A stretch of DNA of 64,000 nt. Origin: Dehalococcoidia bacterium. Lineage in GTDB: Bacteria > Chloroflexota > Dehalococcoidia > GIF9 > AB-539-J10. The notes below the pieces were generated by a model. That model saw nothing but the letters and a program-made list of their open reading frames with translations. It was not told where the DNA came from and ran no database searches. Location of the stretch: NCBI GenBank assembly GCA_046497565.1, contig JAWOFK010000073.1, positions 36,810-100,809 on the forward strand, read 5' to 3'. Positions 5,501 through 36,924 of the stretch are shown here, piece by piece. The number at the start of each line of letters is the position of its first letter. The first letter of the stretch is position 1. The translations under genes and the position numbers were made by a program.

Positions 5501-7033
5501 CTAGCTTCGTTGCTTGCTCCAGTCAGAAACATCACTGGTGAAAGGTGCACGTATTTTCGCAGCCACCTTACGGAAATGGAACCCCTGGACAGCAAGTGTC
5601 ATGGACAAAGGAAAAGTTCTGGGCTTCTTCAGCAAGGTCCAGATAACCAACTTCCAATAATGCACTCTACCTTTTTCCTGAACCCCCAAAACCCATGTAG
5701 ACCTCATCAAGGCTAAGAGATGGAGAAAAGAGATCTTGATTCTTCTCCTATTGCTAGGTTCATACTCCTTCAGAAGGGTTCTAATGCGTTCATAGTATGG
5801 CTTGGGTGCATATATTGTATCTATAACATGCTTATAGCCTCTGACAAGCGCTTCGAGCCCCATTTTAGGGATGAAGTTGGTTGAACCATCTGTATTGTCC
5901 CCCGTACCGCCCGGCAGTAAACGGTTCTCCTGTTTCAGACGTTTGTATAGTCTTGTCCCCGGGGGAGCCATCAACACACCAACCATAGCCATAACGATTC
6001 CACTATTCTGAATGAAATCGATCTGGCTCTTGAAGATGGAAACCGGGTCGCTATCAAACCCGACGATGAAGCCTCCCTGCACCTGCAGGCCGTGGTTTTG
6101 TATCTTCTTAACCGAGGCCAACAAATCACGGTTCTTGTTCGGCATTTTATTGCATTCGACCAAACTCTCTTCATTGGGGCTTTCTATACCCACAAACACG
6201 GTGTCAAATCCGGCCTTGACCATCATTCGCATTAGCTCTTCGTCATCGGCAAGATTAATGGATGCTTCGGTAAAAAATGCAAAGGGATGTTTTCTTTCTT
6301 CCATCCATTTAGTTATGGCCGGCAGGATTTCTGACTTTAGCTTTCGTTTGTTGCCAATAAAATTATCATCAACGAAGAATACACTGGCTCGCCATCCCAT
6401 ATCGTATAACGCGTCCAGCTCGGCTATTATCTGAGCCGCCGTTTTTGTCCGCGGCACATGTCCATTCATAATGACGATGTCGCAGAACTCGCAGTTAAAA
6501 GGGCAGCCTCGAGAATACTGGATAGTCATCGATTGATACTTTTTCCTGTCGATAAGCGACCACAAAGGCACGGGAGTTTTCTTTATGTCAGGGAACTCTT
6601 CAGACGCGTAGCAATGTTTGGCACATCCCTTCTCCAAATCTTCCACAAAGAGCGGCAGTGTATCTTCAGCTTCGTAAGATATCAGATGGTCTATATCATC
6701 ATGACCAAATTCCTCATACCCAAGGGAAAAGACGGGGCCCCCACCAACAATCTTGGTTCCCAACTGCCTGCACCTGTCGACGACCTCCCTGGCCGAATCA
6801 GCCTGCACTACCATAGCGCTGATAAATACATAATCAGCCCACTTGATGGCTTTATCTGTCAGGTTTGTTATATTGAGGTCCACAAGCTTCTTCTCCCACT
6901 CTTGAGGAAGCATCGCAGCTACAGTTAACAAGCCCAGAGGGGGGAAAGTTGCCTTTTTGAAAATGAATTTCAAAGCATGCTTAAAACTCCAGAAGGTGTC
7001 CGGATACCGGGGATAAACTAATAATATCTTCAA
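5501..7033 (-). CDS. B12-binding-domain radical SAM protein with C-terminal DUF4070 (class B radical SAM)
   Basis: N-terminal cobalamin-binding Rossmann region, SRGCPFNCEFCD (CxxxCxxC) radical SAM motif, extended C-terminal domain typical of DUF4070. Confidence 0.85.
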   Translation of the reverse strand: MKILLVYPRYPDTFWSFKHALKFIFKKATFPPLGLLTVAAMLPQEWEKKLVDLNITNLTDKAIKWADYVFISAMVVQADSAREVVDRCRQLGTKIVGGGPVFSLGYEEFGHDDIDHLISYEAEDTLPLFVEDLEKGCAKHCYASEEFPDIKKTPVPLWSLIDRKKYQSMTIQYSRGCPFNCEFCDIVIMNGHVPRTKTAAQIIAELDALYDMGWRASVFFVDDNFIGNKRKLKSEILPAITKWMEERKHPFAFFTEASINLADDEELMRMMVKAGFDTVFVGIESPNEESLVECNKMPNKNRDLLASVKKIQNHGLQVQGGFIVGFDSDPVSIFKSQIDFIQNSGIVMAMVGVLMAPPGTRLYKRLKQENRLLPGGTGDNTDGSTNFIPKMGLEALVRGYKHVIDTIYAPKPYYERIRTLLKEYEPSNRRRIKISFLHLLALMRSTWVLGVQEKGRVHYWKLVIWTLLKKPRTFPLSMTLAVQGFHFRKVAAKIRAPFTSDVSDWSKQRS

Positions 7034-7315
7034 TTTACGCTCCTTTTTGTATAGCTTGAATCATAATACCATAATACAATAATATTTTACCAGTGTCACG
7101 ACAAGCCCCCAAAAAACTCGGGAGGCACAAACCAAAAATGTAGAATGTTCCCAATGTTCATGCGGAATGGGACACATTGGGGGAGGGTTCATGTTGCAAG
7201 CATCTTGCCTATCCCGACTGGTCGGGACTTGACGTTTATATCGATCTAGCTGATAATCACAGTGACTGAAGGGTTGGACAATTGACTGCGCACCGCGGGG
7301 AAAGAATATACTATT

Positions 7316-8806
7316 GTGGCTAATCAAATCAAATTCGGCACTGATGGCTGGCGGGGGATTATCGCCGAGGACTTCACCTTCGATAACGTGCGTATCTGCG
7401 CTCAGGCCGTGGCAGAATACCTGAAGCAAAATGGACTCAATAAACGAGGCCTGGTCATTGGCTATGATACTCGTTTCGCCTCGGAGGATTTTGCCGCCGC
7501 CGCCGCTGAAGTGACGGCCGGCAACAACATCAAGGTCCACCTCTGCCCCAAACCAGCCCCTACCCCGGTGGTGAGCTTTACTGTCCCGGCTACTAATTCC
7601 GCCGGGGCCATTGTGATAACTGCCAGCCACAATCCCGCTTCGTGGAATGGATTCAAATACAAATCTGAGGATGGGGCCAGTGCTCCTGGGGACGTCATCT
7701 CCCAAATAGAGGCAAACATCGCTTCCCTCACCCAAACCCCACCCCCTAAAGGAAAAGGGCCGGGAGAGGGTGTGAAAAGGCTTGAGCTGGATAGGGCCTT
7801 GGAGAAAGGGCTTGTTGACTACCTGGATCCCTCTCCTGTTTACTTCGACCGCCTTGGCCAGTTTGTCGACTTAGAAAAATTGCGCCGCCAGAAACTGAAT
7901 ATCATAGTTGACTCCATGTATGGTGCTGGCATTGGCTATTTCAGGACAATCCTCCAGAACGGCAACCTGAAAATCACCGAGATTAATGCCGAACGAAATC
8001 CCTCCTTCCCCCAGATTCAGCCTGAGCCAATCGCCAAGAACTTGACCACGCTTTCGAGGTTGGTCGTTGAGAAGAAGGCCGATGTGGGCCTGGCCACCGA
8101 TGGGGACGCCGACCGCATTGGCATCATAGACGAAAGGGGACAGTTTCTGACTCAACACCAGGTTTTTGCCTTGCTCTGTCTCTATCTACTGGAAGTCCGC
8201 GGTGAGCGTGGCGCCATGATAAGGACACTCACTTCCACCATGATGATTTCCCGCCTGGGCGAGCTATTCGATGTCCCTGTTTACGAAACGCAGGTGGGTT
8301 TCAAATATGTTGCCCCCTTGATGATGGAGAAAAACGCCATCATTGGCGGGGAGGAGAGTGGTGGCTACGGATTCCGCGGTCATGTCCCGGAACGCGATGC
8401 TATACTTGCCGGGCTCTACTTTCTTGACTTCATGGCGGAAACAGGAAAGACGCCATCGCAGCTTCTCGATTACCTTTACAGCAAGGTGGGATCTCACTAC
8501 TATGACCGGACAGATTTTCACGTCTCCCCAGCTAGGCGTCAGGCAGTCATGCACCGACTGCGCTCCACCTCACCGGACACTATAGCCGGTTCTAGGGTGA
8601 CCAGAGTGGATACCACCGATGGTTTTCGCTTCTTCCTTGCCGATGACTCCTGGCTGCTCATCCGTTTTTCCGGCACAGAACCGCTCATTCGCATCTACTC
8701 TGAAGCTGAAAGCCTAGAAAGGGTGAGGGAGCTACTGGAAGAAGGCAAGAAGCTGGCCTATGAGGCAGGCCCGTCTGGGCAAGATGGGAGTATCGCGGGT
8801 TTCTGA
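7316..8806 (+). CDS. phosphoglucomutase/phosphomannomutase (alpha-D-phosphohexomutase family)
   Basis: FGTDGWRG N-terminal motif, TASHNP phosphoserine loop, GEESGG sugar-binding loop. Confidence 0.85.
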   Translation: MANQIKFGTDGWRGIIAEDFTFDNVRICAQAVAEYLKQNGLNKRGLVIGYDTRFASEDFAAAAAEVTAGNNIKVHLCPKPAPTPVVSFTVPATNSAGAIVITASHNPASWNGFKYKSEDGASAPGDVISQIEANIASLTQTPPPKGKGPGEGVKRLELDRALEKGLVDYLDPSPVYFDRLGQFVDLEKLRRQKLNIIVDSMYGAGIGYFRTILQNGNLKITEINAERNPSFPQIQPEPIAKNLTTLSRLVVEKKADVGLATDGDADRIGIIDERGQFLTQHQVFALLCLYLLEVRGERGAMIRTLTSTMMISRLGELFDVPVYETQVGFKYVAPLMMEKNAIIGGEESGGYGFRGHVPERDAILAGLYFLDFMAETGKTPSQLLDYLYSKVGSHYYDRTDFHVSPARRQAVMHRLRSTSPDTIAGSRVTRVDTTDGFRFFLADDSWLLIRFSGTEPLIRIYSEAESLERVRELLEEGKKLAYEAGPSGQDGSIAGF

Positions 8807-27297: not shown

Positions 27298-27434
27298 TCC
27301 CCAACCGCAAATTGTACCCTGTGTCAAAAACAGAAGTCAACCTGTACTCGGTGGATGTGTCAATAATAGATGTGTTGAATGAGTGAGATGTTATACAATA
27401 AAGGGAAAACGGAGCGGGGGTATCAACAGTTTGA

Positions 27435-29372
27435 ATGAAGAGCAGAACTGTGCAGGGTAACCTTTTTCAGGGCATAGGTCACGTTGAGACACGGGTAATT
27501 TCCCGCCGGGGCGATTTCGAGTCCCTTTTTGACGGTTTCACCAAGATGCGTGCCATTGCCTATGTAGTCTCTTCTGATCTGCTACGCGAATTCTTCCAGA
27601 AGCGCGGCTACACGAAAATCGAGGTAGTTGTAGGTGAAGACCTGACAGAGCCAGCCCTACGACAAGAGCTACAGGACAAGCCGATGGATATCCTGGAGAC
27701 ATTGGCAGCGCAGGTAGAAAATGGCTCGTTGCGCATACTTGTTCCACGGCGCAGCATCCATACCAAGTTGTACATACTGGAAAGGCCTGGATCGGTGCGC
27801 ATAATCCAGACCAGTGCCAATTTGACAGAGACGGCCCGTAAGGCCAGTCAGGTAAATTACGCCTGGTATGCCGACGTCCCTGCTGAGGATGGTTTTGTCG
27901 AGAGAGTGCTGCGGGACTATCGGTCTCACGCAAAAGGCTGCACGCTTTTCATGGGCGAGCTGGTGAACCTCTTTAAAGAGCGCGATAGCACGCCTAGACG
28001 CGAGCTAATTGAGGTGTGGGTGAAGGGAGAGACTATGCCTGCGCCCGAATCTGAGGCGGCAAAAGTGTTCCAGGAAATCTCCACCCAATCTCTCCTTGTT
28101 CCCGGCGAAAAAGAGGCAGACATTGTAACTGTGAAGCTGCCCGAAGCACCAGCTGCCAGAAAGGAAATCGAGCGCCTATTAAGGCCGCTAAAGCCAGCAA
28201 TAACCACCAGTGCGGTCACCCTTAGCTTATCGGCATTCGTCAACCATGTGCATACGACGTATGGAATCCCCTTGATGAGGGTCGATATGGAGAGACAGGA
28301 AATCCGTCTGGGACTGAAGGGGACGGTACTCCGCCTGTCAGAGGCGTTGCCCGACGCTCCAACTGTCAACCAGGGTTTGGAACACCTGGAAGATTATGTG
28401 CGTACCATAGACCTGGGGAAAAGCCCGGACCCGACATTTGCCAAGGCCAGCATGTTCGAAGCACTACTGTATATGTTCTTCTCGCCATTCGCCAATGAGT
28501 ATATGCGCAGAAAACGCCTGGCCTATGCTCAGGTGGACCCAAAGGGCCCCCGGTTCCTTTATATCTACGGCCCTACGCAGAACGGTAAAACAACTTTTCT
28601 CCGATTTTCCCTCAAGCTGATCACCGGACAGGACATGGAGGCTCTACCCAGGGGCGAATTCTCCAGCCGAAAGATACGAGGATCGGCCACTGTCGGCACC
28701 GTGTTCCCGCTGGCGTTCGACGACGTCGAGTTTTCTGGCAAACGCTGGGTTCAGGATGTTTTCAGGTCTTATTGGGAAACTTGGTGGAGAGGCACGCTGG
28801 ACATCCCACAGCTTGTGTTGACTTCAAATGAGCCCAGACTGCAAGATTGGGCGAGGTCCCGTGTCAAGAGAATCGATTTTGATGTCCATTTTGCCTCGAC
28901 CGAAAAGGGGAAGAGAAAGCTCAAGGAGTTGTTTGAGCGCGATAATCGCCTTTTCCGCTGGTTCTCCTACCTGTATCTCAAGCGACTGGCAGTGGCGGAC
29001 GACGAGTTCAGCGACGACGAACTCTACACTGCCCGGGCAGTCATGCGAGACCTCTATGCACACGCCACCAGGAAACAGCCGGAATTCTTCCTTGACCAGC
29101 CTGTTGAAACAAAGTATGACTTGGGGAGAAAACGGTGGGCTGATGTTCTCTACGCCAGGCGGGATGCAAGAGTGGCGCGAGAGAAGGATAGATTGCTGGT
29201 GCGTTTTCCTGACCAGATGCAGTTCTGGGAGATTCGCCGCTACGAGGGATATCTTCCGCCCGAGATAAAGGCCCGCCAGGAGGGCCACACGATAATAGTT
29301 GAAACACCGGGGGAATTCGATGCCTGGTGTCCAGCGCCGCGCCGGCGACTATGGCCGTTCAGCCGCAAATAG
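27435..29372 (+). CDS. fusion protein: N-terminal PLD-like (HKD) nuclease domain + C-terminal SF3-helicase-like P-loop NTPase
   Basis: HKD-type signature H109-T-K…E…TSANLT (HxK…SxNxT). Downstream: Walker A GPTQNGKT (aa 379-386), Walker B FPLAFDDVE, and SF3 motif C VLTSN (aa 461-464). No homology to the surrounding C1-metabolism genes. Confidence 0.55.
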   Translation: MKSRTVQGNLFQGIGHVETRVISRRGDFESLFDGFTKMRAIAYVVSSDLLREFFQKRGYTKIEVVVGEDLTEPALRQELQDKPMDILETLAAQVENGSLRILVPRRSIHTKLYILERPGSVRIIQTSANLTETARKASQVNYAWYADVPAEDGFVERVLRDYRSHAKGCTLFMGELVNLFKERDSTPRRELIEVWVKGETMPAPESEAAKVFQEISTQSLLVPGEKEADIVTVKLPEAPAARKEIERLLRPLKPAITTSAVTLSLSAFVNHVHTTYGIPLMRVDMERQEIRLGLKGTVLRLSEALPDAPTVNQGLEHLEDYVRTIDLGKSPDPTFAKASMFEALLYMFFSPFANEYMRRKRLAYAQVDPKGPRFLYIYGPTQNGKTTFLRFSLKLITGQDMEALPRGEFSSRKIRGSATVGTVFPLAFDDVEFSGKRWVQDVFRSYWETWWRGTLDIPQLVLTSNEPRLQDWARSRVKRIDFDVHFASTEKGKRKLKELFERDNRLFRWFSYLYLKRLAVADDEFSDDELYTARAVMRDLYAHATRKQPEFFLDQPVETKYDLGRKRWADVLYARRDARVAREKDRLLVRFPDQMQFWEIRRYEGYLPPEIKARQEGHTIIVETPGEFDAWCPAPRRRLWPFSRK

Positions 29373-29495
29373 AGACACTCATGATGAATCGGTCCCACAA
29401 TAGCGTAAGACTGGCAGCCTGGCTTGCGCCTGTGTTATAGTCAAAACCGAATTTCCCAGCTGCAAAGGCTATGAGAGTCAAAGAAAGGAGACAAC

Positions 29496-29831
29496 ATGGG
29501 TAGAGAAGAGAGAAGAGCAGAACAAAAACCGAGGAAGAGAAGGCTCCACTGGCTGGAAAAGAGACGCAAGAAAAGCCAGCGACTCAACGAGGTCGTTAGC
29601 CAGCTGGAGGAGTACTTTGACGAAGAGGAGCTTGAGAATGCAAAAACCTTCTTTGTCGACTATTTCACATGGAGCGGGCCATTTTCTGAATTCGATGACA
29701 CGATCGACTTTGAAAGTCTGGACCGCATCTGCAAAGACTATGGGATTGAGTTTTTCGATGCAAACTTCATCATGGACCTCGTAGACGAAGTATTCTCAGA
29801 AGAGCTCGATGAACTCGCCAACGGGCTCTGA
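29496..29831 (+). CDS. hypothetical small protein, basic N-terminus and strongly acidic C-terminus
   Basis: 111 aa; RRKKSQR-rich N-terminal helix followed by a D/E/F-rich region; same strand, 123 bp downstream of the PLD-SF3 gene. Confidence 0.4.
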   Translation: MGREERRAEQKPRKRRLHWLEKRRKKSQRLNEVVSQLEEYFDEEELENAKTFFVDYFTWSGPFSEFDDTIDFESLDRICKDYGIEFFDANFIMDLVDEVFSEELDELANGL

Positions 29832-30060
29832 CCAGCCTTCTGTCCTGCGATGTGCCTCTTCCGTACGGATTGCACGATTGTCAGGAACGTGCAGTGATGA
29901 TTCAGCACATCCAAGTCATTTTGGCGGCACGTATTCGAGCGGTACCACAATATATACCCTTCTCAACTCAAGACTTCACGACTGGTTTTCAATGGAGTGC
30001 GTACATCGCCACCGATTTGAGTGGGTATTCCGGAGACACAATACCTCATTTGTAACACGG

Positions 30061-35532: not shown

Positions 35533-36924
35533 CTACCACCACTCAATAATGGAGCCCCTTCTCTTCAGTGCGATCCCTTCCGCCGTCTCCAGTCCTCTTA
35601 CCCAATCGCCTAACCCGCAGGCATGATGGATGATCAGCGGAATGCTACGCCTGGGAAGAATATCCCGATTCAGACCGTAAGCGAATATTATGCTAACTGT
35701 CTCGCGCTCGGTCTCCGCGGAATCCCAGGGGGTAGGGTATATGAAGCCATGACTTGCCCCGTCGCCGGTTGCATAGAACCAGTTGTCCGGGAACTCTTCT
35801 TTCAGCTGCCTCATCAGCCTGATGGCAGCCAGGTTTGTATCGACGGCATAGCCCTTATTCAGATTCCTCAAGATAGAGTCGGCGAAGGATTCAAAGCCTA
35901 CCGCTGACATAAGGATATGTGCTTTCATAGCCCTGGCCAACTCCAGAACAACCCGAAGTTTCTCTTCGCCCATTATCAGCCAGTCAGCCCGGCTGACCAG
36001 GTCTATCCGAGCAATCCTGATCCCCTGCTGTCTAATAGCTGACAGCAAATCAGGCAGAGTGGCCAGTGATGCCTCATTTATCAACTCGAAGGGGATTTTT
36101 CTTCCCTCCGCATCGTCGGGCAAATTGATTATCTGGGCCAGCACATTATCAAGTGGCAGCTTACCGCCAAACCCCTTATCCCGGGCTACATCACAGAAGC
36201 TACAACCCCGCAGGCCGAGGGATATCCGGCCTCTCTTGTCGAAGGGCGCGTCTTTCAAGTTAGTTGGATAATCAACGCTGACCCTCACCATCCTGGCAGC
36301 ATAAGGACACCCAATCTGTTGTACCACCTGAGCACTGGTTACAGACACCGGCTCCAGTCCCGATGGGCCCGGCCGGTACAGATTCCCCCAGTTTACCTTC
36401 CTCAGAAAATCCCCATTCCACCTGTCCCGCTCATTGATCCGGCATTCGCCATTCTGAGTGCAAAGCGCCCCCGCGATGTTCTCAGGCACCTCTTTACCCT
36501 GAGAATCGATAAAGGGGATTAGCTGCTCAGCAGGTCCCTGGAGAGCAAGACTGAAGCTATCCCTTACCCCGGGAAACCGGTGAGGATGTCGTGCCCAACC
36601 TGTTTCTCCTGCATAGTCGACGTCGGCCTGAGGGCCACCCAGAATCGTTATAGCCCCTTCCGCCTTCAGCTCCCCGGCCAGCTCCCAGAGCTCAGGACGG
36701 CCTCCCAGGCTGCTGAAGCCAATAATCGGTCTTTCGCTGCCAAAGAGCTCAATTACATTCTTCTTAACGGTGTCCTTATCAAAATCATGACCTACTGCTA
36801 CCACCACACACTCATAGTCGGTATTGTCCTCGATAATGGTAGCTGCCATCTGCGGACCCAACAAGCCATAGCCTTCCTCAATATCAGCGCAGTTGGCCAG
36901 GATAACCATTATCTTCTTACTCAT
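35533..36924 (-). CDS. B12-binding-domain / radical-SAM-like protein with degenerate cysteine motif
   Basis: N-terminal region resembles the cobalamin-binding Rossmann domain of class B radical SAM enzymes (…AITILGGPQADV…). The position of the CxxxCxxC motif reads LRGCSFCDV, i.e. only CxxC. Confidence 0.45.
   Translation of the reverse strand: MSKKIMVILANCADIEEGYGLLGPQMAATIIEDNTDYECVVVAVGHDFDKDTVKKNVIELFGSERPIIGFSSLGGRPELWELAGELKAEGAITILGGPQADVDYAGETGWARHPHRFPGVRDSFSLALQGPAEQLIPFIDSQGKEVPENIAGALCTQNGECRINERDRWNGDFLRKVNWGNLYRPGPSGLEPVSVTSAQVVQQIGCPYAARMVRVSVDYPTNLKDAPFDKRGRISLGLRGCSFCDVARDKGFGGKLPLDNVLAQIINLPDDAEGRKIPFELINEASLATLPDLLSAIRQQGIRIARIDLVSRADWLIMGEEKLRVVLELARAMKAHILMSAVGFESFADSILRNLNKGYAVDTNLAAIRLMRQLKEEFPDNWFYATGDGASHGFIYPTPWDSAETERETVSIIFAYGLNRDILPRRSIPLIIHHACGLGDWVRGLETAEGIALKRRGSIIEWW

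Follow-up and report, generated by a model that had tools for sequence, protein, structure and literature searches.

A Stand-Alone AgaP-Family Protein of Dehalococcoidia Combines a Predicted PLD Nuclease with a Ring-Type ATPase, a Candidate Single-Gene Defense System

Introduction

The closest described relative of the protein considered here is AgaP, the pAgo-associated PLD protein of haloarchaeal long-A pAgo systems named APAP (Cheng et al., mLife 2024, PMC11442185). NpAgo and AgaP of N. pellirubrum restrict plasmids in vivo; AgaP on its own is toxic in H. hispanica, this toxicity being neutralized by pAgo, and residues H105, K107, S158, and N160 of AgaP are needed for both toxicity and plasmid restriction (PMC11442185). 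In that study AgaP is described by its N-terminal PLD domain only, and an ATPase is not mentioned (PMC11442185). Here we describe a homolog encoded without an Argonaute in a chromosomal segment of a Dehalococcoidia bacterium; the window is the whole stretch of DNA that was analyzed, 64 kb in length.

Gene and protein architecture

A preliminary description of the window had listed two open reading frames on the + strand, at 27435..29372 (645 aa) and 29496..29831 (111 aa, p111 below), and both were recovered at these positions. The features of the locus are as follows.

27371..27434, + strand: putative upstream leader/promoter, conserved and moving along with the 645-aa gene
27375-27380, + strand: -35-like hexamer TTGAAT, inside the leader of the 645-aa gene
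27389-27399, + strand: extended -10-like element TGT-TATACA-AT, inside the same leader
27435..29372, + strand: AgaP-family gene, 645 aa; N-terminal PLD nuclease, then a three-tier ring-ATPase module
27483..28004, + strand: PLD-superfamily nuclease domain, about residues 17-190 (Foldseek and profile)
27759..27827, + strand: single HKD-type catalytic motif, H109-T-K111-LYILE116...T-S127-A-N129-L-T131
28107..28535, + strand: middle alpha/beta domain (residues 225-300) and long helical collar (residues 308-367)
28542..28934, + strand: P-loop AAA+/ring-helicase ATPase core
28569-28595, + strand: Walker A of the ATPase core, GPTQNGKT
28704-28727, + strand: Walker B of the ATPase core, FPLAFDDV
28812-28883, + strand: sensor-1 TSN465 and candidate Arg finger R476 of the ATPase core
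28950..29339, + strand: C-terminal helical lid and small beta-rich domain, residues 506-635 (secondary structure of the model)
29397..29875, + strand: independent unit carrying p111 (CDS 29496-29831, 111 aa), with its own Shine-Dalgarno site

The nuclease half

PLD enzymes act through a covalent phospho-enzyme intermediate. The N-terminal domain contains the HxK(x)4[D/E](x)nGSxN motif of single-HKD PLD nucleases in the form H109-T-K111-x4-E116...T-S127-A-N129. The nuclease motif pointed out in the preliminary description, H109-x-K...TSANLT, is present, and it is invariant and under selection, as 32/32 aligned homologs keep H109, K111, S127, and N129 (IHTKLY...QTSANLT). Family-wide (22-32 homologs), S127 is nearly invariant, while H109, K111, and N129 are fully so; residues that are still invariant down to 20% identity comprise these three together with G379, G384, K385, D429, N465, and R476 of the ATPase half.

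Structure models were confident (pLDDT 83.8 and 87.8). Foldseek comparison of the N-domain with the PDB yielded SauUSI (7.5e-7), R.NgoAVII (6e-6), Nuc (2.8e-4), and Zucchini (3.3e-4), with NucT, BfiI, and Tdp1 also among the matches and target-normalized TM values of up to 0.64-0.66. Searches of PDB sequences gave no match with the single sequence and only P-loop noise with a shallow alignment; the family profile built from a deeper alignment retrieved R.NgoAVII (1.3e-4) and Zucchini (5.9e-4) and reached Nuc too (hmmsearch), the Tdp1 chains scoring at E about 2.6-2.8. The PLD/Nuc fold anticipated earlier for the N-terminus was thus found by both Foldseek and profile, and, judged by motif and model, the N-domain appears to belong to the single-HKD PLD nuclease branch and to be neither a lipid enzyme nor Tdp1.

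The ring-ATPase half

Walker A (G379-P-x-x-N-G-K-T387), Walker B (F428-D-D430), and S464-N465 are invariant in 32/32 homologs. Walker A, the Walker B acidic pair D429-D430, the sensor-1 asparagine (motif C) N465, and R476 are signatures of ring helicases, all of them invariant; R476 is a candidate trans-acting Arg finger. In the predicted model, a fold search identified the C-terminal half as a three-tier AAA+ ring-helicase fold with flanking N- and C-tiers. The alpha/beta domain (225-300) and the collar (308-367) are taken to be the N-tier of the module. Residues 506-635 sit in the model where the winged-helix C-tier of Cch/SaPI Rep sits, and include many invariant positions (among others W568, D570, R586, E599, P608, K612, G617, and W631); by likeness to the helicases of PMC9371898, this region may bind DNA. 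Between Walker B and sensor 1, in the pre-sensor-1 region, the model places a helix (438-452), with W447, E448, and W451 invariant, rather than a clear DNA-binding hairpin.

By fold, the motor is closest to SCCmec Cch and SaPI Rep, followed by MCM and then by the SF3 members D5 and NrS-1; in structure, Cch and SaPIbov Rep, both MCM-like (SF6), match best, SF3 proteins score slightly lower, and phage primase-helicases also occur among the structural relatives. The modeled motor thus looks like the self-loading helicases, Cch and SaPI Rep among them, with which mobile elements initiate replication. The overall domain call of the preliminary description, a single-HKD PLD nuclease joined to an SF3-like ring NTPase, is backed by conservation and structure. 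As to the assignment to SF3 helicases proper, the ring-helicase AAA+ nature and the three motifs hold, while SF3 itself is just an approximate fit, the MCM-like (SF6) proteins being closer. Curated helicase families (D5_C, MCM etc.) gave nothing above noise for the 645-aa protein in Pfam, NCBIfam, and PHROGs, and PDB profile matches of the motor half were at the P-loop level only. More generally, neither the 645-aa protein nor p111 had a match above noise in Pfam, NCBIfam, PADLOC, or PHROGs; the PADLOC check (PADLOC-DB v2) proposed earlier returned no significant match, only mad8 (E 7e-4, 17 bits) over the P-loop.

Family, distribution and homology to AgaP

A word-index search found 296 homologs and an exhaustive search 431 representatives, nearly all full length, so that the gene is not the orphan it had been taken for. 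Domain architecture is constant across about 430 representatives. In a scan of 185,579 species genomes, 54 loci were found, one per genome, in at least 10 phyla, archaea included. Conservation is unusually high along the whole protein, at about 50% identity between phyla. The precomputed Pfam tag PF27394 ("Aq_aa27") is carried by all close homologs (48-96% identity), and membership of the window protein in PF27394 rests on these tags of its homologs. No function is attached to the Pfam name "Aq_aa27", and a literature search on "aq_aa27" gave nothing relevant. On plasmid ece1 of Aquifex aeolicus, the namesake of Aq_aa27, the homolog is split into three ORFs; other plasmid-borne members are found in haloarchaea, Acetobacter, and Athalassotoga. 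The gene has an accessory distribution and is horizontally transferred.

BLASTP aligned residues 28-631 of the window protein with residues 26-694 of N. pellirubrum AgaP (28% identity, E 4e-78); in the alignment comparison the window protein belongs to a bacterial clade apart from AgaP. In N. pellirubrum, a Piwi gene precedes the AgaP gene by 65 nt, and among haloarchaeal close relatives the neighbors alternate between pAgo, a UvrD cluster, and an SMC cluster. With two pAgo queries, tblastn matched loci L154, L155, and L157 only, and neither the 64-kb window nor any MAG locus; no Argonaute was present within 6-10 kb of the family gene in about 60 related loci.

Genomic neighborhood

The 645-aa gene is divergent from cooC and is located between cooC-folD-fhs and CCG/FAD-oxidase genes, which bears out its earlier placement on the opposite strand between cooC-folD-fhs and glcF/glcD-like genes. 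It sits at a synteny breakpoint. When the cooC-to-glcF junction was checked, as the preliminary description had proposed, 0/80 relatives with cooC-folD-fhs carried the 645-aa gene there. The gene looks native in both GC content and codon usage, and its composition gives no hint of the insertion suspected earlier or of recent transfer. The flanking 30 kb are ordinary housekeeping chromosome, and the 27-57 kb segment, when tested as a possible island, proved to contain housekeeping genes and to lack a tRNA or integrase boundary.

DNA homology to relatives in other genomic contexts starts at 27371-27387, and conservation between relatives covers the ORF and about 60 nt upstream, ending at the stop codon. 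Alignment of upstream regions revealed TGTTATACAAT, conserved in the window and at L149, L001, L010, L016, and L018. The leader at 27371..27434 is a predicted promoter, and the conserved unit appears to be the ORF with this promoter of its own.

No recurrent neighbor was found over about 57 non-redundant loci, beyond the local synteny of close relatives. The 149 flanking ORFs searched with Pfam and PADLOC were heterogeneous, any one family being present in at most 3-4 of the 149. Integrase, partition, or other MGE genes were not seen as conserved neighbors, and there was no cognate methyltransferase near the gene. Many family neighborhoods contain TA, RM, Fic, IS, helicase-nuclease, or pAgo genes, and many others consist of plain housekeeping genes; one homolog adjoins a set of metallophosphoesterase, SMC-family ATPase, and NurA nuclease genes, and others adjoin UvrD and PD-(D/E)XK genes.

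The suggestion that p111, a basic/acidic protein, is a cognate partner or regulator was rejected. Its homologs (9 in total) include ones at 79-84% identity in unrelated contexts lacking the 645-aa gene, and p111 is absent from all other family loci except a 96%-identical strain. Its DNA homology block is separate and matches L011-L014, all without the 645-aa gene. By these comparisons p111 appears to be an unrelated lineage-specific gene and not part of the system.

Proposed function

The explanation we favor, with a probability of about 0.6, is a stand-alone AgaP-family PLD nuclease with an MCM/SF3-type ring motor that most likely eliminates extrachromosomal or invading DNA. The homology to AgaP favors a self-contained defense nuclease over an orphan or a replication protein; a single-gene defense protein of nuclease and motor had been the secondary reading of the preliminary description, and homology to the plasmid-restricting AgaP now moves it to the front.

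In the proposed mechanism, the C-terminal module would oligomerize on DNA, probably as a hexamer, with ATP driving loading or translocation. Ring assembly would pair the N-terminal PLD domains; with one HKD motif per chain, two chains would be needed per active site. The paired domains would then cut DNA metal-independently via a phospho-histidine intermediate, the targets probably being plasmids and viruses. In haloarchaea, Argonaute may be coupled to AgaP for targeting and restraint, while the window protein and most bacterial members would act without it. As no Argonaute is present here, the motor and C-terminal domains themselves would have to provide target choice and self-restraint. Since AgaP alone is toxic, the solo form should need some means of restraint, a point against this reading.

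Several observations touch on the defense role. Counting for it are the family-wide invariance of the catalytic residues in both halves, the N-domain matches to restriction-type PLD nucleases, the ring-helicase fold, the constant architecture, the patchy cross-domain spread, the plasmid-borne members, the many neighborhoods with TA, RM, Fic, IS, helicase-nuclease, or pAgo genes, the conserved unit of ORF and promoter, and the absence at the junction in 80 relatives; counting against it are the unusually high whole-length conservation, unlike that of rapidly diversifying specificity domains, the native codon usage, the many housekeeping neighborhoods, the lack of a significant PADLOC match, the helix modeled in the pre-sensor-1 region, and an identity to AgaP of just 28%.

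Alternative explanations

In the headline reading of the preliminary description, PLD takes the place of HUH and nicks covalently while the ring unwinds. The protein would then initiate replication or act as a relaxase or transposase-like enzyme, whether still active or left over from a mobile element that was domesticated. The covalent intermediate of PLD enzymes, the plasmid-borne members, and the position at a synteny breakpoint would all suit such a protein, and replication-initiator helicases of mobile elements are the closest structural relatives of the motor (PMC9371898). However, in repeat, tandem-repeat, and promoter/terminator scans of the locus, neither iterons nor tandem or terminal inverted repeats exceeded chance, DNA conservation between genomes stops at the stop codon, there is one locus per genome in the scan, and conserved integrase, partition, or other MGE neighbors are lacking. 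Moreover, no family members were found in INPHARED or IMG/VR, Athalassotoga pATS1 lists a separate replication-initiation protein, the flanking 30 kb are housekeeping DNA, and the demonstrated role of AgaP is restriction (PMC11442185). AgaP-type restriction, together with the lack of origin repeats and MGE context, disfavors the Rep/relaxase reading, which we regard as very unlikely. If PLD truly replaced HUH, the protein would be a self-loading initiator, nicking DNA by way of a covalent phospho-histidine intermediate before unwinding it. It would then represent the first member of a new class of replication or mobilization proteins, or a one-gene mobile element that inserts at synteny breakpoints, and the chance of this seems slimmer still.

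A role in DNA repair or genome maintenance, with a Tdp1-like phosphodiesterase or end-processing nuclease and a helicase acting on adducts, breaks, or forks of the host chromosome, is unlikely. In its favor, PGAP calls several homologs "tyrosyl-DNA phosphodiesterase", some bear the precomputed tag PF06087, Tdp1 is among the fold matches, whole-length conservation is high and codon usage native, and the metallophosphoesterase/SMC-family ATPase/NurA, UvrD, and PD-(D/E)XK neighbors mentioned above would fit. Against it, each Tdp1 chain contains two HKN motifs vs. one motif here, the family profile misses Tdp1 (E about 2.6) while reaching R.NgoAVII, Zucchini, and Nuc, the gene is rare, patchy, often plasmid-borne, and missing from most close relatives at this locus, and its homolog AgaP is toxic and acts on plasmids (PMC11442185). 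The protein might instead be a selfish addiction or toxin-like module, or depend on an unlinked partner (pAgo, helicase), its solo appearance being an artefact of the local view. The toxicity of AgaP and its neutralization by pAgo (PMC11442185), the frequent location of family members among TA genes, and the alternating pAgo, UvrD-cluster, and SMC-cluster neighbors of the haloarchaeal relatives agree with this idea; yet no Argonaute turned up in the 64-kb window or, for about 60 loci, at a distance of 6-10 kb or less, nor was there a recurrent neighbor of any kind, and we consider it improbable. Finally, phosphatidylserine synthase chains among the Foldseek matches (E 4e-5 to 7e-4) could hint at a lipid-metabolizing PLD of the cardiolipin/phosphatidylserine synthase type fused to an ordinary housekeeping AAA+ domain. 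Such lipid enzymes carry two HKD motifs per chain vs. one here, Pfam and NCBIfam contain no lipid-enzyme match, there is no evident membrane segment, and the fusion partner has a DNA-helicase fold; the profile search retrieved nucleases only, and not the lipid synthase-like family that had been named earlier as the outcome to watch for. This makes the lipid reading extremely improbable. Lipid-enzyme and Tdp1 identities were both rejected on the single motif and on profile scores pointing toward nucleases.

Implications

If the stand-alone defense nuclease is the correct reading, AgaP changes from a PLD "accessory" of haloarchaeal Argonautes into a two-engine machine of nuclease and ring motor. 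Both catalytic centers are invariant in the family, most members of which, in at least 10 phyla of bacteria and archaea, have no Argonaute. This suggests that the motor, unmentioned in PMC11442185, plays a central part when AgaP locates or processes plasmid DNA, and that Argonautes recruited a pre-existing autonomous effector. Tentatively, AgaP-type proteins could be autonomous nuclease-motor immune effectors derived from an MGE-initiator helicase, with capture by Argonaute being secondary, although we hold this broader scenario to be possible rather than probable. A mesophilic, non-halophilic bacterial ortholog like the window protein may give access to biochemistry that did not work with the halophilic proteins. 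The gene is also a candidate single-gene defense or anti-plasmid system of poorly studied anaerobes (Dehalococcoidia, Elusimicrobiota), missed by the PADLOC models used.

Comparison with known systems

With AgaP, the window protein shares homology over the full length, an identical domain order, the PLD catalytic H, K, S, and N, and the Walker A, Walker B, sensor-1, and Arg motifs. The two differ in that AgaP has a pAgo neighbor, whereas the window and related bacterial loci have none, and in the distinctive insertion of roughly 35-50 residues between HxK and GSxN of AgaP, which is absent from the window protein, where the spacing is canonical (15 residues between K111 and S127). This insertion is confined to Natrinema and Haloplanus members; two other pAgo-linked homologs lack it.

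Among ATP-dependent PLD restriction enzymes, SauUSI (PLD, SF2 helicase, and target-recognition domain) is one of the best fold matches of the N-domain, forming with NgoAVII/CglI (PLD R-protein and ATPase N-protein), BfiI, and Nuc the best fold/profile group. The common principle is a single-HKD nuclease that needs dimerization and is combined with an NTP-driven motor. However, the motor of SauUSI is an SF2 helicase, while the window protein has an MCM/SF3-type AAA+ ring helicase; it also lacks a DNA-reading domain of the B3-like or SRA-like kind, and there is no cognate methyltransferase in its neighborhood.

The staphylococcal-island helicases fall into SF6, MCM-like (SCCmec Cch, SaPIbov1 Rep), and SF3 (SaPI5 PriRep, SaPI1 Rep). 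In contrast to Cch and SaPI Rep, to which no sequence similarity is detectable in Pfam, PHROGs, and PDB sequence searches, the window motor is fused to a nuclease and not to a primase or DUF927 domain, and its gene has no iterons downstream and is not embedded in a mobile island. With the HUH-SF3 rolling-circle Rep proteins (parvovirus/CRESS Rep, Helitron-like logic), the window protein shares the general layout in which a nuclease working through a covalent intermediate precedes a ring helicase on a single chain.

Domain architecture and conserved motifs

Both open reading frames of the preliminary description are present in the window:

27435-29372, + strand, 645-aa protein; N-terminal PLD-nuclease domain at about residues 17-190 (Foldseek against PDB)
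29496-29831, + strand, 111-aa protein, within its own block of DNA homology (29397-29875)

The 645-aa protein yielded nothing above noise in Pfam, NCBIfam, PADLOC and PHROGs. All nuclease and NTPase motifs claimed for it are invariant among 32 aligned homologues of 47-84% identity: H109 and K111, S127-A-N129-L-T131, G379-P-x-x-N-G-K-T387, F428-D-D430 and S464-N465. In a wider alignment, reaching down to 20% identity, the sole invariant positions are H109, K111, N129, G379, G384, K385, P425, D429, N465, R476, D528 and P549. Most of them are catalytic, belonging to a PLD active site and to a P-loop ATPase, and they include the sensor-1 asparagine and a candidate arginine finger; the motifs are therefore real and under selection.

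AlphaFold modelled the full-length protein with confidence (pLDDT 83.8). Foldseek matched the N-terminal domain to SauUSI (7.5e-7), R.NgoAVII (6e-6) and Nuc (2.8e-4) in PDB and, with weaker scores, to Zucchini, NucT, BfiI and Tdp1; phosphatidylserine synthase was also among the matches. Among PDB sequences, a profile built from diverse family members recovered R.NgoAVII (1.3e-4), Zucchini (5.9e-4), Nuc (0.026) and BfiI (0.041), did not reach Tdp1 (E about 2.6) and matched no lipid synthases. As each chain carries a single HKD motif, the domain belongs to the dimerising nuclease branch of the PLD superfamily. Matches in a viral structure library were phage primase-helicases, DUF927 and VirE-N proteins, and adoma- and polyomavirus helicases. 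The NTPase had been called SF3-type, which is right in kind, but the nearest solved structures are SF6-like island initiators. Cch and SaPIbov1 Rep are MCM-like (SF6), Rep1 and PriRep5 are SF3, and all four form iteron-binding, three-tier hexameric rings composed of an NTD, an ATPase and a winged-helix CTD (PMC9371898). We regard a single-HKD PLD nuclease fold joined to a ring-helicase AAA+ fold, both with invariant catalytic centres, as established.

Distribution of the family

The large gene had been described as an orphan, but a word-indexed search returned 296 homologues. Nearly all measure 640-670 aa; most come from Dehalococcoidia/Chloroflexota and Elusimicrobiota, and they bear the precomputed Pfam tag PF27394 (Aq_aa27). 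When HMMER was run exhaustively against 1.84 billion cluster representatives, 431 passed E <= 1e-3 and 135 of these also passed E <= 1e-30, the full-length architecture remaining unchanged to about 26% identity. A pattern-limited scan of 185,579 species-representative genomes gave 54 loci, a lower bound because its peptide patterns favour close relatives, in Dehalococcoidia, Elusimicrobiota, Ignavibacteriales, Bacillota, Desulfohalobiaceae, WOR-3, Alphaproteobacteria, Paceibacterota, Actinomycetota, Thermoplasmatota and Methanoperedens. In PLSDB (tblastn), full-length relatives of 26-30% identity occur on haloarchaeal megaplasmids and more distant ones on Acetobacter plasmids and Athalassotoga pATS1; phage genomes and IMG/VR contained no matches. 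Such a rare, patchy, cross-domain spread is typical of an accessory gene moved by horizontal transfer.

The Pfam namesake lies on the Aquifex aeolicus plasmid ece1 (24250-26214, minus strand), which carries many TA, AbiE, Fic and PIN genes. It is broken up into three successive ORFs, which match profile positions 31-141, 150-438 and 466-540, and represents either a pseudogene or a frameshift error of early sequencing.

Genomic context

No conserved neighbour emerged when the ORFs flanking about 57 non-redundant loci were clustered; the most frequent one recurred in 4 loci, all close relatives. The 149 flanking ORFs from the bulk scans are mixed, including housekeeping genes, toxin-antitoxin pairs (HicAB, MazEF/PemK, MNT-HEPN, AbiE), DpnII-type restriction-modification, Fic and Macro-domain genes, DUF4143/AAA_14 ATPases and IS elements. 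Three loci in two phyla (L035 4295-5482; L042 1410-2558; L061 3794-5080) have a DUF4143/AAA_14 ATPase (PADLOC candidate PDC-S01) no more than about 1 kb from the homologue. In the Thermoplasmatota clade (L051 7951-9815; L062 1501-3426; L059 3648-4219) two genes come after that of the homologue, one for a PRiA4_ORF3-like protein and one for a protein of about 390 aa that matches no family. They could be partners specific to this clade, or the arrangement could be simple local synteny.

The 111-aa protein, rich in Lys/Arg at the N-terminus and acidic in its C-terminal half, had been proposed as a cognate partner. This is not the case, as homologues of 79-84% identity sit in unrelated neighbourhoods without the large gene. 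It has no family match and only nine homologues, all in Dehalococcoidia, each encoded by a small gene that stands alone in surroundings of its own, and its gene has its own Shine-Dalgarno site. Among the family loci, only that of a strain with a 96%-identical homologue (L149) retains both genes; there, homology to the window stops at about 29895.

Between relatives in differing contexts, DNA homology covers only the ORF and 50-65 nt upstream (27371-29375), a leader carrying a conserved extended -10-like element, TGTTATACAAT. The large gene thus appears self-contained, with its own predicted promoter. An 18-nt direct repeat, also found in L149, lies in the divergent intergenic region between cooC and the large gene, overlapping the cooC start, its two copies 36 nt apart:

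27320-27337, first copy, TGTGTCAAAAACAGAAGT
27356-27373, second copy, TGTGTCAATAATAGATGT

This repeat is a possible operator, serving either the cooC-folD-fhs operon or the divergent gene. Iterons, tandem repeats and terminal inverted repeats did not exceed chance at the locus.

The cooC-folD-fhs genes are shared with 80 metagenomic relatives (FolD up to 96% identical), none of which has the large gene upstream of cooC. The large gene abuts a synteny breakpoint, since in three of the relatives (L074, L078 and L105) the DNA upstream of cooC is collinear with 57.4-64 kb of the window. The roughly 30 kb of extra window genes between the collinear parts (27.3-57.4 kb) indicates a chromosomal rearrangement or indel with the large gene at its left edge. 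This segment is ordinary chromosome (rpoD, otsA, ADP-forming acetyl-CoA synthetase, DEAD-box helicase, pfk, fba) without a tRNA or integrase boundary. GC content, GC3 and codon usage, checked for foreign origin, are all native.

Downstream of pfk lies a 463-aa ORF (35533-36924, minus strand) with no Pfam match at E <= 1e-5. The C1 cluster is arranged differently in five relatives (L073, L088, L102, L137, L138), where cooC has not a single folD downstream but two divergent folD-like genes upstream, sharing about 59% and 49% identity with the window FolD.

Relationship to Argonaute-associated proteins

On Haloferax alexandrinus pBNX82-1 and Natrarchaeobaculum pAArc-Mg-01, a homologue lies directly 3' of a Piwi-domain (Argonaute) gene. 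On Natrinema pellirubrum pNATPE02 (5548-7701), an intact 717-aa ORF starting 65 nt past the Piwi gene is agaP, encoding the Ago-associated PLD protein of haloarchaeal pAgo systems; the gene table of this plasmid shows it only as fragmentary hypothetical-protein calls, of which two face the other way. BLASTP aligns the window protein with this AgaP at 28% identity (residues 28-631, E 4e-78), including all PLD and ATPase motifs. Acting with its long-A pAgo, AgaP restricts plasmids; this depends on AgaP H105, K107 and G157-S158-N160, while the pAgo catalytic tetrad is dispensable. AgaP also raises immunity to an ssDNA virus and is toxic by itself (Cheng et al., mLife 2024, PMC11442185). Homology of the window protein to a protein with demonstrated PLD-dependent anti-plasmid activity is thus established.

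No Argonaute gene was found in the window or in any of roughly 60 MAG loci. In a distance tree, haloarchaeal members with and without pAgo interleave, the window protein falls in a separate bacterial clade, and the closest relative of N. pellirubrum AgaP lies between a UvrD/PD-(D/E)XK/helicase trio and a DEAD/RNase H-like/DEAD set. The trio, made up of a UvrD helicase, a PD-(D/E)XK nuclease and a roughly 1,145-aa helicase, is found repeatedly beside AgaP homologues, with or without pAgo, on haloarchaeal plasmids L150, L151 and L154; in the first two it is followed by a DEAD helicase, an RNase H-like protein and a second DEAD helicase. Together these genes may form a larger multi-gene conflict island or system.

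Proposed function

We interpret the window protein as a defence-type nuclease-motor with a probability of about 0.6; confidence in the family and fold assignment is far higher. A repair enzyme performing Tdp1-like adduct or end processing would agree with the PGAP names, high conservation, native codon usage and some repair-like neighbours, but is unlikely given the single motif instead of two, the profile scores, the rarity of the gene, its plasmid carriage and the AgaP phenotype. Dependence on an unlinked partner, or a toxin-like role, also seems unlikely. The preliminary description favoured a Rep or relaxase in which PLD replaces HUH, a reading taken here to include a transposase. The motor does resemble mobile-element initiators; however, the locus has no origin-like DNA or mobile-element neighbours, the scan found one locus per genome, and pATS1 has a separate annotated initiator. 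We therefore consider this very unlikely, and a categorically new Rep-like class is not supported. A lipid enzyme is effectively excluded.

As a defence nuclease-motor, the protein would form hexameric rings on DNA through its C-terminal module. The PLD domains could be brought into pairs by this assembly or by ATP-driven movement, forming active sites that would cut DNA metal-independently via a phospho-histidine, the natural targets probably being extrachromosomal or invading DNA. Argonaute would supply targeting and restraint in pAgo-linked members; in solo members both would be intrinsic, perhaps provided by the strongly conserved C-terminal domain.

The protein is of a known kind, the pAgo-associated PLD nuclease, within the theme of PLD nucleases combined with NTP-driven motors in restriction, and its family is already in Pfam. 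The AgaP paper (PMC11442185) credits the protein with an N-terminal PLD domain only and nowhere uses the terms ATPase, Walker or P-loop; likewise, only "phospholipase D proteins" were listed for pAgo operons (Ryazansky et al., 2018). Compared with the literature examined, the conserved MCM/SF3-like ring-ATPase half is apparently new, as is the Argonaute-independent, single-gene state of most of the family, this gene included.
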